Origin: Escherichia phage 132
Length of the DNA stretch: 64,000 nt
Sequence record: MZ417521
Reading direction: 5' to 3' (one strand)
The translations under genes were made by a program, and so were the position numbers. The number at the start of each line of letters is the position of its first letter. Positions within the stretch are counted from its first letter, which is position 1. The notes beneath the pieces were generated by a model, which saw nothing but the letters and a program-made list of their open reading frames with translations, was not told the origin of the DNA and searched no databases. Shown here piece after piece: positions 2,219 through 23,279 of this stretch.

Positions 2219-3420
2219 TATTTTGTAATAATGTCAAACTGTTCTTTAAAGCAGAAGCTTGAATCTTGATGCTGATACAAAAATTCATAAGCTTTTTCAC
2301 GTTCACGGTCATAAAGAGCTCGGTCAGATGACAGTTCTTTAATACGTTCAAATGTTGATTCCATGTCATTTTCATCAAACCAAACGATACCGCTATCATG
2401 AGAAATTAATGGAGTATTATCAACACGGAATTTTAAATTTTCGCCCGTAGATTTCCAAAATACCGGAATTGTTCCACATGCACCAAGCTCGAGATGAGTG
2501 TATTCTAAAGAACGCTGTAGATATTTTTTGTCCAACTTACTCAGCTGATAACCAAATCCGGATTTACTCATGCGTTCAAGCATTTCGCTATTTACATAAC
2601 GGTCGAGAATTTGCGTTGGCAAATTAGGAGCAATTTTAATTTGGTCTACTTGATGAAGACGATAATACTCGTATGGAATTCCTTTTTCTTTAATAGGAAT
2701 GAACGCTGGAGAACGTTCCAGACCTTCCATAATAGTACTTAGTCCTGCAGGTTTAAGATGTTTTTCGTGAAAATCAAACATCTGATAAAAGCCTTTCCAT
2801 GTAGTAGTACGACCAATCCAACGGTTGATATTCATGTTAATTTCAGAAACATCTTTCCAGTAGGTTGATCGAACCTTCGCAATATCCATAGGAGGCTGGA
2901 AGTTATATACGGTCGGTGCTTCTTCAATATCATCAAACAGAGAAACTGTTTCTGGATACCATTCTTTCATTAAAACTTTATTAAAATCACCATTATCAGA
3001 ATGGCTAAAAATAACATCAGCTCGACGAACAGTTTCTTCTAATCCCAAATTTCGGCGTAAAGAAAGAGAAGAATGGTCATGCTGATAAACTACAACACGA
3101 ACCGAAGGTTTAATATTATCAATAATTTTTTTATAGTTATTAATTGTGTCTTCTTCAACTGAAGTAGCAGGAACTGAATTGATAATTAGAATATCACAAT
3201 CATTTACCAACTTAAGTGTTTTATCGTATTCTTTTGCCAATAAAACCGGAATTGAAAATGACTTATAATCATGTGCGCAATTACGAGTAAATGATTTATC
3301 TTTAGCATAAACCAAAGTTACTTCATGACCATTTTTAATAAACCAATCACGTTGCTCAAGAGAAAATTTAGTTACACCGCAACCTTCAAGACCTCGAGCC
3401 ATAAAAATACATACTTTCAT
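2218..3420 (-). CDS. a-gt: DNA alpha-glucosyltransferase (hmC-DNA glucosylation)
   Basis: 400 aa; recognised as T-even alpha-glucosyltransferase by sequence and by position after gene 47; followed by a hairpin terminator. Confidence 0.85.
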   Translation of the reverse strand: MKVCIFMARGLEGCGVTKFSLEQRDWFIKNGHEVTLVYAKDKSFTRNCAHDYKSFSIPVLLAKEYDKTLKLVNDCDILIINSVPATSVEEDTINNYKKIIDNIKPSVRVVVYQHDHSSLSLRRNLGLEETVRRADVIFSHSDNGDFNKVLMKEWYPETVSLFDDIEEAPTVYNFQPPMDIAKVRSTYWKDVSEINMNINRWIGRTTTWKGFYQMFDFHEKHLKPAGLSTIMEGLERSPAFIPIKEKGIPYEYYRLHQVDQIKIAPNLPTQILDRYVNSEMLERMSKSGFGYQLSKLDKKYLQRSLEYTHLELGACGTIPVFWKSTGENLKFRVDNTPLISHDSGIVWFDENDMESTFERIKELSSDRALYDREREKAYEFLYQHQDSSFCFKEQFDIITK

Positions 3421-18393: not shown

Positions 18394-19113
18394 TTAGGAT
18401 TCTTCTAAATGTCTTTTCTGAAAAGTTGATACCATACTACGATACGGTTCATTTGGATACCCGTGTTTTATAGCTTCCTTTGTAAATTTTCTCCATCCAT
18501 ATTTAGTTTCTTTCCAAAGCTCGAATAATTCATCTTCATATTGCCATATAGTTAAATGAGAACGCTTTGCAGCTTTAATTCCATTAATATGCTTTTCTTT
18601 TACTACAGGATTGCTTAGTTTCTTTTTAATAATATTACTAACTTTTCTAACAAAAACTGGGTCCTTATATCGTTGCGAAGTTTTTATTGAAGTGTTTAAT
18701 TTAGCTTCCGGCGTGGATGTGACCTCTTTCATCTTTTTCTTCATATGCTGTATATGATTAGGATTTTTCCATAAATTTATAGAATGCTTTTTGCATTTTA
18801 TCCTAGTTTCATCTGCAACCTTTCCTCCTTCACCCCCGTATGACAGGTTAACACAGTTTTTTCCATATTTCAATTTACCTGCCATGATATATAATATTTC
18901 AGCTTGTACCATTTTATCATAATTATCAAAAACTTCTAAAACCGTTTTTGATAATATGTGGTCATTTGACACTTTTACACGTTCTATATAATTTCCACTA
19001 CCAACATACGAATCATTGATGTTATTAGTTATATGTCGACCATAATAGTATTTCTTAATACCTGTCTTTAAATTTAATATTTCAGTTTTATAGATAGTAA
19101 AATATTTTTTCAT
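18394..19113 (-). CDS. Free-standing GIY-YIG homing endonuclease (seg-like)
   Basis: 239 aa; N-terminal GIY-YIG-like module (YFTIYK...YYYGRH...VGSG) and basic C-terminus; start overlaps the stop of the upstream ATPase gene. Confidence 0.7.
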   Translation of the reverse strand: MKKYFTIYKTEILNLKTGIKKYYYGRHITNNINDSYVGSGNYIERVKVSNDHILSKTVLEVFDNYDKMVQAEILYIMAGKLKYGKNCVNLSYGGEGGKVADETRIKCKKHSINLWKNPNHIQHMKKKMKEVTSTPEAKLNTSIKTSQRYKDPVFVRKVSNIIKKKLSNPVVKEKHINGIKAAKRSHLTIWQYEDELFELWKETKYGWRKFTKEAIKHGYPNEPYRSMVSTFQKRHLEES

Positions 19114-20078
19114 TTTAATAATACCGTTTCAGCAATTTCTTCCCAATGATTTTTGTCGGTCATAATGAAGTCAGCAAGATAAAGAGCAGTACGCAGTGAA
19201 ACATTGCGTAAACGATTAACATTGACTTTCATCCATGATAATGCTTTATAAGTTTCTTCATCAGAAAGACCGCGCTTTTGCATCATGTCAGTTGAAAGAA
19301 TAACATCTTCAACCCTGACCATAATTTCTTCATTAGTATGAACACCCAAATCTAAATAAACTGAGCGGGACACTAATGCTTGTAAATGTGGAGCAAGTTT
19401 AGTACCACGGTCTAATTCGCGGTCAATGTCAACGTTTGTGATAAAAACAATCGTTCCTTTAAATTCAAACTCACGGTCAATGCCTTTTTCTTCTAAGTAA
19501 GAAGATGCAGTGCTCCAGCAGACTTTACGGGTCTCTCCAGTGTCCAGAGCAGCTTTTAGAAGATTAAGAATGTCCATATCAGAGAAAACATCCACATCAT
19601 CAATCAAAAGGACAGAATTCTCTTCACGATTGTTCCAAAGCTGCTCATAAAGACCAATACCAGAGATTTTACCATTAATGCTTTTATATTCAATGTATCC
19701 ATTATCATTTGCTTTATTTAAAGCTTTATCTAAAGAATACGTTTTACCAATACCTGCTGCGCCAGAGATAATTAATGAACGAATATTTCCATTAATAATA
19801 CCATTCGTCATCATTCCCATAACATTAAATCTTTTATTAATGCGGGTTTTCATATCTTCATATGATTCTTTAACTTCTTCAACTTTTACACCATCATATG
19901 AAATATCTGATTTGTAAACCCAAACACCGCGACGTTTACCGTCAATTTCAACAAAAACTTTACCATCTCCTTGTGCATCTACCGGAGCATTATCTGGGAA
20001 CCATTCGCCTAAGAGCTCAAAAGTTCCAGAGATTTCTTTACCGAAGTAGATACCCTTATTGATAGTTACAGTTTTCAT
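19110..20078 (-). CDS. AAA+ family ATPase
   Basis: Start at internal ATG (MKTVTINKG...) with GGAGAA SD; Walker A GAAGIGKTYS and Walker B LLIDDVD; the ORF-track N-terminal extension is a read-through of the promoter/terminator sequence. Confidence 0.7.
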   Translation of the reverse strand: MKTVTINKGIYFGKEISGTFELLGEWFPDNAPVDAQGDGKVFVEIDGKRRGVWVYKSDISYDGVKVEEVKESYEDMKTRINKRFNVMGMMTNGIINGNIRSLIISGAAGIGKTYSLDKALNKANDNGYIEYKSINGKISGIGLYEQLWNNREENSVLLIDDVDVFSDMDILNLLKAALDTGETRKVCWSTASSYLEEKGIDREFEFKGTIVFITNVDIDRELDRGTKLAPHLQALVSRSVYLDLGVHTNEEIMVRVEDVILSTDMMQKRGLSDEETYKALSWMKVNVNRLRNVSLRTALYLADFIMTDKNHWEEIAETVLLK

Positions 20079-20112
20079 TTTATTCTCCAAATCTGTATCA
20101 GTTGATAGTTGT

Positions 20113-20142
20113 ATAGTACCATAAAGCTTTATGCTTGTAAAC
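20113..20142 (-). promoter_or_regulatory. Early sigma70-type promoter
   Basis: Minus strand GTTTAC-N18-TGG-TACTAT; upstream of the AAA+ ATPase gene, just after a terminator. Confidence 0.6.
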
Positions 20143-20164
20143 CGTTTTGTGAAAAAATTTCTGA

Positions 20165-20192
20165 AATAAAAAAAGGGAGCCCGAAGGCTCCC
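20165..20192 (-). terminator. Intrinsic terminator after the nucleotidyltransferase gene
   Basis: GGGAGCC-UUCG-GGCUCCC hairpin followed by UUUUUUUAUUU. Confidence 0.7.
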
Positions 20193-20194
20193 TA

Positions 20195-21208
20195 TCATTT
20201 ATAATAACTTCGGTGGTTTTCAAGATAAACCCTCTCAAGGAAGTCATCCCAGAAACCCATGTCTACTTTTTGCTGCATACCGTTCTTAGAAGCTTCAATG
20301 GATGCTGCTTCTACTTGATCGACCACATCTTCCAAAAACTCTTGAACAGTTTTAAATGGATGTTTACCCAACTTCACGTCGAGAATAAATGGAGCATCTT
20401 GGAGTGGATAAACCAAGTCGCCAGTTTTGTAAATTTCCAATAGTTGGAGTCCACCACGACAAGCATGACTCAAAGCTTTCCAGTCAATACCCTCATTCGC
20501 TTCAGCTTTACGAGCACGTTCGCCGTATTCAGCATCAAGTTTATTCAAAGACTGCTTAAGCTCAATAAGAGAAAGAGTTGTCTGATATTTACGACCCAAC
20601 ACAGTATAGAACGTTTGTGGGCCTGTTTTCTCATGATTGTGGAACACCCATTCACAGAACTCGTTTTCTGGAAGACGATGCTTAATATCTTCAACTTTAG
20701 TTCGACGCTGCTTAATGGAACCGTCTTCTTGGTAATCAACCCATTGCTCGGGGATTTGATTAACTACTTTCAATACATCACGTAATGCAGCCAAACGAGA
20801 ACCCTTGACACCGTATTTAGAAGCTTGCTTGCGGACATATCCTAAATATGATTTCATGTTAGTCGTATAAAAACGAGAACGGTTGTCTTGAATAAACTTC
20901 CACACATCAGGCAAATCAGATTTAACCACTAGTTCAGGTGGAGTGTGAAGCATATCTAATGCTACAGTTTCACCATCTGCTGCTAATTTAAAGAAATATT
21001 TAAGACTGTATAGTTCATGGTCAATATCATCTTTAGTGTTTTTAGATGATGTGTTGTTAGTATTTTTACTCATGTGCTCTTTAACATTTCCAATAAGAAT
21101 ATCGCGAGCAGGAGGAACAAAGATTTCTTTAAAATCTACATCAGATTCTGGAGTAGAAGTTCCATAAAGATGACTACCAAAATAGCTTTTCATTACTGTT
21201 TTCATCAT
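20195..21208 (-). CDS. Nucleotidyltransferase-fold protein (MNT-like N-terminus, helical C-terminus)
   Basis: 337 aa; GSHLYGTSTPESDVDF matches the GS...D.D signature of Pol-beta-type nucleotidyltransferases; C-terminal R-x5-H; followed by a strong terminator. Confidence 0.65.
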   Translation of the reverse strand: MMKTVMKSYFGSHLYGTSTPESDVDFKEIFVPPARDILIGNVKEHMSKNTNNTSSKNTKDDIDHELYSLKYFFKLAADGETVALDMLHTPPELVVKSDLPDVWKFIQDNRSRFYTTNMKSYLGYVRKQASKYGVKGSRLAALRDVLKVVNQIPEQWVDYQEDGSIKQRRTKVEDIKHRLPENEFCEWVFHNHEKTGPQTFYTVLGRKYQTTLSLIELKQSLNKLDAEYGERARKAEANEGIDWKALSHACRGGLQLLEIYKTGDLVYPLQDAPFILDVKLGKHPFKTVQEFLEDVVDQVEAASIEASKNGMQQKVDMGFWDDFLERVYLENHRSYYK

Positions 21209-21666
21209 TCAGCCTTATATTCAATAACAGGACATACTTTAGCTTTACGAGCTTTTAAAAATTCAACGATAACCGATTTCTTGGGTTGAATAGGAGGTAA
21301 ACCTTTATACGCCCTATCAATATTTTCTACGTGTAAAGCATAATCCTTTTTCCATTTATAATCTTTATATTTTTCACGCAAATGTACAGGAATAACAAAT
21401 GAACCGATAATAAGTAAAACGAGCAAAATGGCAAGTATAAATGCTGATGGAAGAAGAGTCCATAAACTACCGAAAATAAGCCAACGTTGTAGGCTTTCTG
21501 CACAAATAATTGTTAGCCCTACGAGTATAGCACATCCAAAAATAGAAACGAAAAATGTAGGAATGGCAATAGACCAAAAATATGCGCATAGTGTCTTAGG
21601 TCGTTGCCATTCATCGTTAAACAATTTGAATAATTTATAGTGCCAAGAGTTTTCATTAATAATCAT
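21205..21666 (-). CDS. Membrane protein (2-3 TM helices)
   Basis: 153 aa; 4-nt overlap with the nucleotidyltransferase gene. Confidence 0.55.
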   Translation of the reverse strand: MIINENSWHYKLFKLFNDEWQRPKTLCAYFWSIAIPTFFVSIFGCAILVGLTIICAESLQRWLIFGSLWTLLPSAFILAILLVLLIIGSFVIPVHLREKYKDYKWKKDYALHVENIDRAYKGLPPIQPKKSVIVEFLKARKAKVCPVIEYKAE

Positions 21667-21668
21667 AA

Positions 21669-22190
21669 TTATCCTTTCATTGAAGGCGTAACAGTTGTTA
21701 AATACCTAATCATAGCCTCAGCTTCTGATTTTGATAGTGAAATTTCTTCACCGTTTTGACGAATAGAAATAAAATCTGGATGACGGTCACCACCAGCTTT
21801 TAAAACACACATATAAGTATCAGTTTCATCTTCAATATCTGAAATAATTGAAGCAGTTCCGCATGAATGTGGTTTTTGATAAATCAATGCAGCTTTTCTT
21901 CCACCGTTTGACTGTTCATAAACTTTTAATACATCAAACAAATCACTTCTTTTATCAATAGCTAAAATGTTATTTTCATCTTCAATGTTAAATCCTTCGG
22001 ATACTTCATAAAGTGTTACCCATAAATCACCGATGTCAATAACAGCATTTACTTTTCCACGGCTTTCAAGAGTATGACAAATTTTCTTGATTTCGTCATA
22101 ACTCATTTTAATAATATCATCTCCTTGACTAAGAAAGATGTCATTTTTAAATTCAACACGAATTAAACCGCTTTCACTTGAAATAAACAT
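21669..22190 (-). CDS. Hypothetical protein, paralog A (shares C-terminus with 22197..22754)
   Basis: 173 aa; C-terminus ...SEAEAMIRYLTTVTPSM resembles ...KDEAIALKTYLDSVIPTM of its neighbour. Confidence 0.55.
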   Translation of the reverse strand: MFISSESGLIRVEFKNDIFLSQGDDIIKMSYDEIKKICHTLESRGKVNAVIDIGDLWVTLYEVSEGFNIEDENNILAIDKRSDLFDVLKVYEQSNGGRKAALIYQKPHSCGTASIISDIEDETDTYMCVLKAGGDRHPDFISIRQNGEEISLSKSEAEAMIRYLTTVTPSMKG

Positions 22191-22196
22191 ATTTCC

Positions 22197-22754
22197 TCAC
22201 TTTGAAATCATAGTTGGAATAACAGAATCAAGATAAGTCTTTAGTGCAATAGCTTCGTCTTTGGTAAATGTGACAATATGCGATCGAAAATCATCAATTT
22301 GACGAATAGTTAAGACATCTCCATCTTCATAACATTTTGATACGTTTAAAACAGTTTCATCATTCTGATTGCAAGCGTTAGTAATAATAGCATTGCAATT
22401 TTTAAACCATTTTAAACTATGTTTTCTTTCATTAGAATCATAAAAATATTTAATGTAAGTTATAAAATTATCCCAATTATTAATTGATAAGCACATTGAC
22501 TCGCTTTTAATATTAAATCCTGGGCATGAAGAATAAAAATGAATTTTATGCTCATCATTAATGCTTACAATTTTATCAGTATAAGGATATTCAATTTGGG
22601 TTAAATGAATGATTTCACTAGGTGTAAAATACAGCATATCGTCTTCTTGTGTCAAACGATACATATTATTTACTTTTTCTATAGCCAATTCACCAAAAAG
22701 CGGACTAACTTCTAATACTAATCGTTTCATATTGATTCTCTTTGACTCACTCAC
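22197..22754 (-). CDS. Hypothetical protein, paralog B
   Basis: 185 aa; GTG start with AAGGAG SD 9 nt upstream. Confidence 0.55.
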   Translation of the reverse strand: MSESKRINMKRLVLEVSPLFGELAIEKVNNMYRLTQEDDMLYFTPSEIIHLTQIEYPYTDKIVSINDEHKIHFYSSCPGFNIKSESMCLSINNWDNFITYIKYFYDSNERKHSLKWFKNCNAIITNACNQNDETVLNVSKCYEDGDVLTIRQIDDFRSHIVTFTKDEAIALKTYLDSVIPTMISK

Positions 22755-22889
22755 AATTACATACTCCTTTGAATAATATCAATAATGTTGTTCACCAGAT
22801 TATAAGTAAACATTGGGTAATTATATTGAATCATCACATACACAACAAACAAAATTTTCATTCTCTTCTCCTTGACAGTTGACAAGATT

Positions 22890-22921: not shown

Positions 22922-23095
22922 TTAAATGACGTTTTCAATAAAATTCTGAAGCTTTGTGTGAGCATCAACCATGATTTTCATTTCTTCTTTGGCGAAAGCT
23001 GTACCTCTTTCCCGAGCAGAATACTCATAGTCAGAAACTGCATTAGCATATTCTTCAATTAGCTTCATTAAAAACATCTGCTTTTCAGTTTTCAT
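22922..23095 (-). CDS. Hypothetical 57-aa protein
   Basis: Not in the ORF track; ATG at 23093-23095 with AGGTGG SD; translation MKTEKQMFLMKLIEEYANAVSDYEYSARERGTAFAKEEMKIMVDAHTKLQNFIENVI. Confidence 0.35.
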   Translation of the reverse strand: MKTEKQMFLMKLIEEYANAVSDYEYSARERGTAFAKEEMKIMVDAHTKLQNFIENVI

Positions 23096-23279
23096 TATTC
23101 CACCTAATCATTTCAAGATATTGAACTAACTTAGCTTTGGATTTATCCAAATCCTTTTTAGCTGCTTCTATACCGTCGTATGAATATCCTTCACAATGCT
23201 CAACTGCCAATTGATATGAATCTATTTCAATATCACGTGCTAATTTAATGATTTTTTCAAACTGTTCGCGTGTTAGCAT
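23085..23279 (-). CDS. Hypothetical 64-aa protein
   Basis: ORF track; part of a chain of coupled small ORFs. Confidence 0.45.
   Translation of the reverse strand: MLTREQFEKIIKLARDIEIDSYQLAVEHCEGYSYDGIEAAKKDLDKSKAKLVQYLEMIRWNNEN

Follow-up and report, generated by a model that had tools for sequence, protein, structure and literature searches.

This analysis concerns a block of small genes in a 64,000-nucleotide (nt) stretch of Escherichia phage 132 (record MZ417521; the whole stretch is called the window, and all coordinates refer to it), and in particular mobD.2, an open reading frame (ORF) of 34 codons, with the three genes that follow it. By its matches the genome is that of a T4-like phage, as a 2.4-kb megablast query around the locus hits 516 phage records, nearly all of Tequatrovirus type and the best being AR1 (96.9%). 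The genes of the region all lie on the minus strand, where the order of transcription is mobD.3, mobD.2a, a promoter-like site, the 34-codon ORF, ORFs of 185, 173 and 153 amino acids (aa), nrdC.11 and nrdC.10 (Table 1). The ORFs noticed in a sequence-only reading of the window are all present at the positions given, on the minus strand (153, 173, 185 and 34 aa). Gene names were taken from the annotations of AR1, T4 and RB6 and from the T4 reference record, together with Pfam and PHROG matches. The 34-codon ORF is mobD.2 (= tk.-8), annotated in T4, RB6 and RB14; the 185-aa ORF is mobD.1 (= tk.-9, Y05I_BPT4), and the 173-aa and 153-aa ORFs correspond to AR1_101 and AR1_100. All four genes are thus already known from annotations of T4 and its relatives, and Pfam and PHROG families cover three of the four. 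We read the locus as an early gene block of T4 type, bounded by mobD.2a and nrdC.11 and present in the common version, which lacks the mobD endonuclease, and give the explanation as a whole, with the expression layout and the gene roles proposed below, a probability of about 0.78.

The block would be expressed from a host sigma-70 early promoter directly upstream of mobD.2. The promoter-like site at this place has the equal-highest score (10/12) in the region scanned, is kept in T4, AR1, RB6 and T2, and resembles sites in Mosigvirus, CHI14 and S16; in phage Lutter another annotator places a promoter at the equivalent position. Transcription is predicted to start near 22883, and a single mRNA would carry mobD.2, mobD.1, the 173-aa paralog, the 153-aa gene for a two-helix inner-membrane protein, and nrdC.11. 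Two features noticed by the sequence-only reading hold up here, namely that the small ORF has a strong Shine-Dalgarno (SD) sequence behind an early-type promoter (AAGGAG and the 10/12 site) and that its last codons carry the SD for the GTG start of the 185-aa ORF (AAAGGAG, 22770-22764). T2 has an ATG in place of this GTG, and in T4 stop and start overlap (TAATG); both observations support the GTG start. In the other genera, too, a GAG-containing SD for whichever gene comes next sits in the same mobD.2 codons, so the C-terminal end of mobD.2 is under a double constraint. The genes of the block overlap or stand 2-6 nt apart (2 nt between the mobD.2 stop and the mobD.1 GTG; an ATGA overlap of the 153-aa stop with the nrdC.11 start), and each SD lies inside the end of the preceding gene. 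Because of this tight layout, ribosomes are probably handed on from gene to gene. A 42-aa form of mobD.2 used by some annotators, with a TTG start at 22885, was rejected, since its start codon coincides with the predicted site of transcription initiation and the added residues are not kept beyond Tequatrovirus.

Table 1. Coordinates of the gene block, its predicted signals and domains, and its flanks in the window
Feature	Position	Strand	Basis or remark
mobD.3	23085-23279	-	Pfam DUF7438
mobD.2a, 57 aa, upstream flank, ends just before the promoter	22922-23095	-	Pfam DUF7438, E 3.5e-16; annotated mobD.2a in RB6
Sigma-70 early-type promoter-like site, GTTTACA-17-TGgTATAGT	22919-22890	-	Score 10/12, extended -10 TG
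SD of mobD.2, AAGGAG, 6 nt before ATG	22868-22873	-	Read from sequence; identical in T4, AR1, RB6, T2
mobD.2, 34 aa, ATG start, product MKILFVVYVMIQYNYPMFTYNLVNNIIDIIQRSM, ortholog of T4 MobD.2 (P39239)	22757-22861	-	PHROG 3515, E 6.4e-22
SD of mobD.1, AAAGGAG, within mobD.2 codons 31-33, 9 nt before GTG	22764-22770	-	Read from sequence
mobD.1 (Y05I family), 185 aa, GTG start	22197-22754	-	Pfam T4_y05I_N and T4_y05I_C
MobD.1 N-terminal domain, residues 11-108, two beta-beta-beta-beta-alpha repeats, type I PC4/Whirly/PUR-like (predicted)	22431-22724	-	
MobD.1 C-terminal domain, residues 113-181, third beta-sheet-plus-helix repeat and the family's best-conserved motif	22212-22418	-	
173-aa mobD.1 paralog (= AR1_101), absent from T4	21669-22190	-	BLASTP, Pfam T4_y05I_N/C
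153-aa two-helix membrane protein (= AR1_100), absent from T4	21205-21666	-	PHROG 944, PHROG 22816
Transmembrane segment 1 of the 153-aa protein, about residues 29-56	21499-21582	-	Kyte-Doolittle
Transmembrane segment 2 of the 153-aa protein, about residues 63-93	21388-21480	-	Kyte-Doolittle, Hessa scale
nrdC.11, RlaP-type nucleotidyltransferase, downstream flank	20195-21208	-	Pfam RlaP, E 3.3e-11; PHROG 388, E 7e-137; annotated nrdC.11 in AR1, T4
Sites of the T2 deletions	22629-22628, 22398, 22040, 21811-21810, 21564-21563		

A bare 34-codon ORF is not above chance in AT-rich DNA, and the window holds dozens of similar ones; mobD.2 is counted as a real gene because it is conserved. The check proposed by the sequence-only reading, a comparison of the locus among relatives, shows conservation across six genera, contrary to the refuting outcome named there of an ORF kept in no relative. 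By tblastn the peptide occurs in 843 phage records. They include members of Tequatrovirus (identities of 88-100%) and Mosigvirus (about 60%), and also Karamvirus, Winklervirus, Gelderlandvirus and Klebsiella phages, these four groups with 47-54%. Start and stop codons are intact in 30/30 loci examined, and the length stays between 32 and 36 aa. Besides M1, residues Y8, Q12, Y13, P16, F18, T19, Y20, N21 and V23 are invariant. Between genera the proportion of synonymous differences (pS) is at or near saturation at 0.4-0.96 while that of nonsynonymous differences (pN) is 0.18-0.36, and the variable sites fall on codon positions 1, 2 and 3 in numbers of 20, 6 and 27; together these patterns point to selection on a protein. 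With 47-58% identity mobD.2 is at least as conserved as the nearby, well-studied rI (27-51%). The match to PHROG 3515 (78.2 bits) pairs residues 9-42 of the 42-aa form with profile positions 2-35 of 35. Synteny agrees as well, with mobD.2 located downstream of rI.-1 and mobD.5-mobD.2a and upstream of the nrdC.11 side, in the order seen in T4, AR1 and RB6. We conclude from these comparisons that mobD.2 truly codes for a protein and that purifying selection has acted on its sequence throughout the six genera. That it might instead be a chance, untranslated ORF in AT-rich intergenic DNA would fit the many 25-50-codon ORFs of the window, the undetected protein and the knockdown without effect described below; the conservation, the far less variable second codon position (6 vs 20 and 27) and a strong SD at ideal spacing effectively refute this view, and we give it next to no weight.

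The MobD.2 motif is confined to phages. A DNA pattern back-translated from it gave 0 matches in 185,579 bacterial and archaeal species genomes, and in IMG/VR it was found in 15 contigs, all but two of at least 84 kb, carrying the same ortholog types as T4-like phages. Owing to its small size mobD.2 is also under-annotated: it is intact yet without annotation in Manna (locus positions 1940-2044), AR1 (2940-3044), RefSeq CC31, ECP52 and others. It is discussed nowhere in the full-text literature that we searched, and the same search found no T4 ribosome-profiling study.

T4 itself provides the experimental record. Its MobD.2 (P39239; AAD42594.1; PHROG 3515) lies at the same position behind the same promoter, also has 34 aa and is 88% identical to the protein of the window, the four differences being I3V, V7I, D28N and I29M. 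The two loci differ in that the T4 mobD.2 stop overlaps the mobD.1 ATG, whereas here the GTG follows 2 nt after the stop. The RNA of T4 mobD.2 is classed as early and its protein as NA, that is, undetected, while for MobD.1 and MobD transcript and protein are both classed as early (PMC9697503, Table S2). In a CRISPRi-ART screen of T4, mobD.2 (fitness 0.006, p 0.52), mobD.1 (-0.04, p 0.25) and mobD were all scored as 'Not Fit' (PMC11879866), so these three genes are dispensable on the laboratory strain. The four genes of the block are accessory, being dispensable in the laboratory and, for several of them, lost or degraded in T4 and T2.

Some of these observations, and some from structure prediction, speak against a functional helical peptide. 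MobD.2 has never been observed as a protein, a point that we count as weak, since trypsin cuts only after K2 and R32 and leaves one hydrophobic peptide of 30 residues, so that non-detection is expected. Its knockdown is without phenotype. A single-sequence AlphaFold2 (AF2) prediction gives one helix over residues 2-33 with a predicted local distance difference test score (pLDDT) of 92.9, which is weak evidence for a short peptide without an alignment, and the invariant proline P16 sits mid-peptide. A single conserved helical face was considered and rejected (R 0.35, equalled by 13-25% of random position sets).

The position of mobD.2 directly between the promoter and mobD.1 invites the idea of a leader peptide, raised by the sequence-only reading, or of a regulatory upstream ORF, the translation of which would matter only for the control of mobD.1 by attenuation or coupling while the peptide had no function of its own. 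The mobD.1 SD in its last codons, the 2 nt between stop and GTG, the overlap of stop and start in T4 and the failure to detect the peptide in T4 proteomics all agree with such a role, and in being a short ORF upstream of and coupled to another gene mobD.2 is like the bacterial leader and arrest peptides of the trpL, ermCL, TnaC and SecM type. A peptide read only for the sake of mobD.1 is, however, hard to reconcile with purifying selection on the amino-acid sequence across six genera, with a following gene that differs in most of them, or with an intact mobD.2 in Manna, which lacks mobD.1, and in T2, where mobD.1 carries frameshifts. The spacing leaves no place for a terminator or antiterminator, and coupling is equally tight between every gene pair of the block. 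Folding of the mRNA segment is no more stable than that of shuffled sequence (z +0.87), the segment has no Rfam match at E up to 1, and a scan found no terminator-like site between mobD.2 and mobD.1; on the folding score and the lack of an Rfam match, an RNA element was rejected as the explanation. We therefore regard a leader peptide as very improbable: on comparative grounds mobD.2 is not one, and it is independent of which gene comes next.

A related proposal is that MobD.2 is a nascent arrest peptide whose conserved core stalls the ribosome in the exit tunnel and tunes whatever gene follows. It would explain conservation of the amino-acid sequence without a stable product. The next gene's SD is always in the last codons, and the conserved block is contiguous (residues 12-24) and not on one helical face, as in known arrest peptides. 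Yet the distance from motif to stop varies between 8 and 13 residues among genera, a ribosome stalled past the motif would be expected to hide the downstream SD and not to expose it, and unrelated downstream genes would all need the same control. Unlike the classical leader and arrest peptides, mobD.2 has neither an alternative RNA structure nor a constant regulated gene, nor a fixed spacing of its motif from the stop. MobD.2 is not known to match any arrest motif, which also counts against this proposal, and there is little chance that the proposal is correct.

The sequence-only reading had further described the ORF as hydrophobic and its product as a possible small membrane peptide. Hydrophobicity is strong only in about the first 11 residues (residues 3-11) and does not extend to the rest. 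On the two simple hydropathy scales on which our membrane calls rest (Kyte-Doolittle and Hessa), the best 19-residue Kyte-Doolittle mean is 1.03 (orthologs 0.69-1.04; usual threshold 1.6), and the Hessa sum is +8.3 kcal/mol as compared with -4.4 for a true span of the neighbouring 153-aa protein. Neither scale predicts a transmembrane span, and we lean against one. An integral single-pass microprotein that modulates a host membrane protein or the two-helix phage protein is nevertheless suggested by the very hydrophobic N-terminal run K-ILFVVYVMI (11-residue Kyte-Doolittle mean 2.44), by the single 32-residue helix of the AF2 prediction and by the fact that mobD.2 and the two-helix gene are the two block genes present in all six genera. 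Polar and aromatic residues (Q, Y, T and N) that lie within a hydrophobic helix are a usual mark of contacts between helices in membranes, which also counts in its favour. With the low hydropathy values, the invariant proline at position 16 and the retention of mobD.2 in Manna in spite of the missing two-helix protein, we consider this alternative unlikely. Whether MobD.2 is a transmembrane peptide is thus uncertain, leaning towards no; a peripheral or partner-assisted association with the membrane is possible.

On our preferred reading MobD.2 is most likely active early in infection, as a small peptide that is probably helical and partly hydrophobic. With low confidence we propose that it would bind a partner through the invariant core QYxxPxFTYNxV; the most plausible candidates are a conserved enterobacterial protein and the membrane surface.

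The next two genes of the block belong to the Y05I family. The 185-aa ORF is the ortholog of T4 MobD.1 (Y05I_BPT4, P39240, PHROG 1502; 91% identity), relative to which it carries five inserted residues close to the N-terminus. In T4 there is one copy, with mobD after it, whereas here, as in most Tequatroviruses, a second and divergent copy of 173 aa follows. The sequence-only reading had described the two ORFs as paralogs with a shared C-terminus; paralogs they are, but the relationship is not limited to the C-terminus and extends over the whole length (BLASTP, 28% identity over 176 columns, E 1e-10). Both proteins exceed the Pfam cut-offs for T4_y05I_N (PF24449, 24.9 bits) and T4_y05I_C (PF24448, 27 bits), with 143.7 and 74.8 bits for the 185-aa ORF and 115.2 and 82.4 bits for the 173-aa ORF, and the best-conserved motif of the family, (F/L)(T/S)K.EA.A...YL..V.P(T/S)M, is C-terminal. 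Orthologs of the 173-aa paralog group as a clade of their own (P0041-P0047). The family is tiny and confined to phages, comprising 53 clusters in a word-indexed search and 30 clusters at E <=0.001 in a profile scan of 1.84 billion representatives, and the true hits that were scanned carry both Pfam domains or the C-terminal one alone. One further hit, a 1572-aa protein with 12 matched stretches (P0082), was discarded as a repeat artefact, since its Pfam domains are of the beta-helix/NosD type and T4_y05I is not among them.

Six metagenome contigs encode a hybrid protein (P0022) that joins the N-terminal part of MobD.1 to the C-terminal part of the 173-aa paralog, with the junction ...NQNDET|DTYMC.... 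Read by eye, GATGAAACTG occurs at this place in both genes, which a computed search did not confirm; further on, both paralog genes share the identical 12-nt string CTATTCGTCAAA. The hybrid looks like the result of a deletion between the tandem paralogs at a short repeat.

Structure prediction provides a lead on the function of the family. An AF2 model of MobD.1 built from 31 sequences (mean pLDDT 80.7; predicted template-modelling score, pTM, 0.64) shows three sheet-plus-helix repeats, of which by DSSP the first two are beta-beta-beta-beta-alpha and the third has five strands before its helix. The N-terminal domain is modelled at a pLDDT of 87-95. The strongest structural matches are Pur-alpha, MRP1/2 and Whirly, all of them single-strand nucleic-acid binders, although the model also matches members of the fold not described as such. 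In the PC4-like fold class, type I consists of two repeats in one chain and type II of dimerised single repeats, and Pur-alpha is described as the only known protein in which the two are combined (PMC7549692). The hallmark of the PUR family, three repeats with repeats I and II forming one domain, is found in the model, and MobD.1 appears to share its layout with Pur-alpha. In both MobD.1 and its paralog, repeats 1 and 2 would form a PC4/Whirly/PUR-like domain, with repeat 3 serving for dimerisation. Stand-alone versions of the C-terminal repeat (65-90 aa) occur in Yersinia phage fHe-Yen9-01, Serratia phage X20, Erwinia phage Cronus and metagenomes, which agrees with the third repeat being an independent, possibly dimerising module. 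The beta-sheets most likely bind single-stranded nucleic acid or a protein ligand, and binding of single-stranded nucleic acid by MobD.1 and its paralog is a reasonable hypothesis from the model. The Pfam curators have labelled the family 'putative transcription factor'.

Several results count against this assignment. The C-terminal domain of the model is only moderately confident (pLDDT 62-83), and Foldseek returned no significant match for the MobD.1 model in the PDB. No PurA match was obtained with Pfam at E up to 0.1, and the profile scan of the 1.84 billion representatives yielded only T4_y05I proteins and P0082. We found no sequence link of Y05I to the Whirly family, and neither of the marks of Whirly membership, a sequence match and a homotetramer, was seen. 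Homology among the internal repeats receives weak support from hhalign, which aligns repeats 1 and 3 (E 0.0011) and finds nothing for the other pairs. Finally, both MobD.1 (net charge -6) and its paralog (-11) are acidic, as nucleic-acid binders with this fold seldom are. These charges, along with conserved acidic residues including E26, D38, D39, E47, E83, E85 and D146, would suit a Whirly-like fold that binds no nucleic acid and works as a protein-binding adaptor or decoy, for instance against a host factor. The presence of the family in few T4-like genera (the 30 clusters above) would be typical of such host-specific accessory factors. We regard an adaptor or decoy as a serious possibility, if somewhat short of an even chance, since single-strand nucleic-acid binders provide all of the strongest structural matches, the arrangement in three repeats parallels that of Pur-alpha and the Pfam name points to transcription.

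The 153-aa product, called a membrane protein by the sequence-only reading, proves to be one. It has two hydrophobic spans, with 19-residue Kyte-Doolittle means of 1.6-2.6 for windows starting at residues 25-42 and of 1.9-3.1 for windows starting at residues 62-80 (Hessa sum -4.4 for residues 74-92), and it matches PHROG 944 'membrane protein' (E 5.6e-50) as well as PHROG 22816. No Pfam or NCBIfam family covers it, the NCBIfam search having given nothing useful. It belongs to a two-helix family (PHROG 944/22816) that includes AR1_100, to which it is 98% identical, S16 gp58 and myPSH1140 gp083, whose genes adjoin nrdC.11 or its equivalent and whose products share the same N- and C-terminal motifs. 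In Mosigvirus, Karamvirus, Winklervirus, Gelderlandvirus and Klebsiella phages, orthologs occupy this same position and conserve NSWH(Y/F)K, LCxYFW and KA(R/K)KxK(V/F)CP, while the gene is frameshifted in T2 and absent from T4 and Manna. Residues H9, G122, K138, K141, K143, C145 and P146 are invariant across the six genera, and C27 of LCxYFW is found in all full-length orthologs. Applied by reading, the positive-inside rule would place both termini in the cytoplasm, in which case H9, C27 and C145 could form a metal or redox site.

The comparison among relatives also clarifies the history of the block. The HNH homing endonuclease gene mobD lies between nrdC.11 and mobD.1 in T4, RB6 and 45 other records. 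It is not present in the window, where the slot is filled by the 153-aa and 173-aa ORFs, to neither of which T4 MobD (P39241) is related in sequence. The sequence-only reading had correctly placed mobD in this region of T4, taking the genes found here as its replacement. The direction is reversed, however. The T4 mobD DNA was found in only 47 records, all at least 99% identical, as opposed to 449 phage records with the 153-aa/173-aa pair at 90-97% identity, the typical divergence of the core genome, and the membrane gene is syntenic in five other genera. These data identify mobD as a recent invader; by this comparison the pair is the older and common state, and mobD is a recent mobile insertion that replaced it. 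Previous work describes mobD as a free-standing endonuclease inserted between nrdC.11 and mobD.1 (PMC2988022).

The gene that follows mobD.2 changes from one relative to the next. Here and in T4 it is mobD.1. Mosigvirus, RB6, AdolfPortmann and Manna have an ORF of 59-61 aa at this place, Karamvirus and Klebsiella phages have a DksA-like zinc-finger gene, and S16 has a different small ORF; the downstream gene also differs in Winklervirus and Gelderlandvirus. Salmonella phage Manna retains an intact mobD.2 without mobD.1, the paralog or the membrane gene. In T2 (PV648363) five deletions of 1-2 nt frameshift mobD.1 (two), the 173-aa paralog (two) and the 153-aa gene (one), and mobD.2 is intact. 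As the deletions are separate and the truncated T2 products are independently on record in NCBI and UniRef (P0050, P0057), this points to real gene decay and not to sequencing error. In all, at least five architectures are found between mobD.2 and nrdC.11, and by these comparisons the slot between mobD.2 and mobD.1 is a small hot spot of gene gain and loss.

Individual relatives add further detail. Some Tequatroviruses have one or two extra ORFs (61 aa, 88 aa) between mobD.2 and mobD.1, at locus positions 2044-2497 in RB6 and 844-1029 in AdolfPortmann; in Manna the corresponding positions are 2044-2229. The zinc-finger gene of Karamvirus and Klebsiella phages (2608-2877, 2599-2865 and 2587-2853 in their loci) encodes a DksA/TraR-like C4 protein beginning with (N)GWGPSD(D/E)GF, and its start overlaps the mobD.2 stop. 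An unannotated frame after mobD.2 in Serratia phage CHI14, from about position 2600 of the locus onward, is probably the same gene. In Karamvirus and Klebsiella phages no promoter-like site was found upstream of mobD.2, which overlaps the end of a gene of about 150 aa.

The flanks of the block deserve a brief comment. As mobD.2a and mobD.3 are both DUF7438 proteins, they form a second tandem paralog pair in the region; in the T4 reference annotation mobD.2a measures 117 nt, shorter than the 174-nt ORF found here. On the other side, the nrdC.10 ORF (19110-20198) has 362 aa, of which PHROG 1250 matches only residues 41-362, and AR1 and T4 are annotated with about 322-325 aa, leaving a gap of about 115 nt between nrdC.11 and nrdC.10. 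The first 40 codons of this ORF are probably not translated.

Taken together, the results allow a joint proposal that we advance tentatively and consider rather doubtful as a whole. MobD.2 would be an early, phage-only effector of 32-36 residues whose invariant QYxxPxFTYNxV core docks on something that Escherichia, Klebsiella, Enterobacter, Serratia and Salmonella have in common, for example a defence protein or one associated with the membrane. The Y05I proteins, for their part, would be the first in phages to have three repeats arranged in the manner of Pur-alpha, and early in infection they would act on single-stranded nucleic acid. An effector of this kind would explain why mobD.2 is retained in six genera despite the loss of all its neighbours and is yet dispensable in the laboratory. 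What the analysis adds to the existing annotations is comparative evidence that one of the smallest annotated ORFs of T4 is real, under purifying selection and not a leader, a corrected direction for the exchange in which mobD replaced the membrane-plus-paralog pair, and a predicted fold, the PC4/Whirly/PUR-like three-repeat, as a lead for the Y05I family. The gene is a tractable target for T4 genetics and, if MobD.2 does act on a host component that is conserved, it would be added to the few phage microproteins whose targets are defined.

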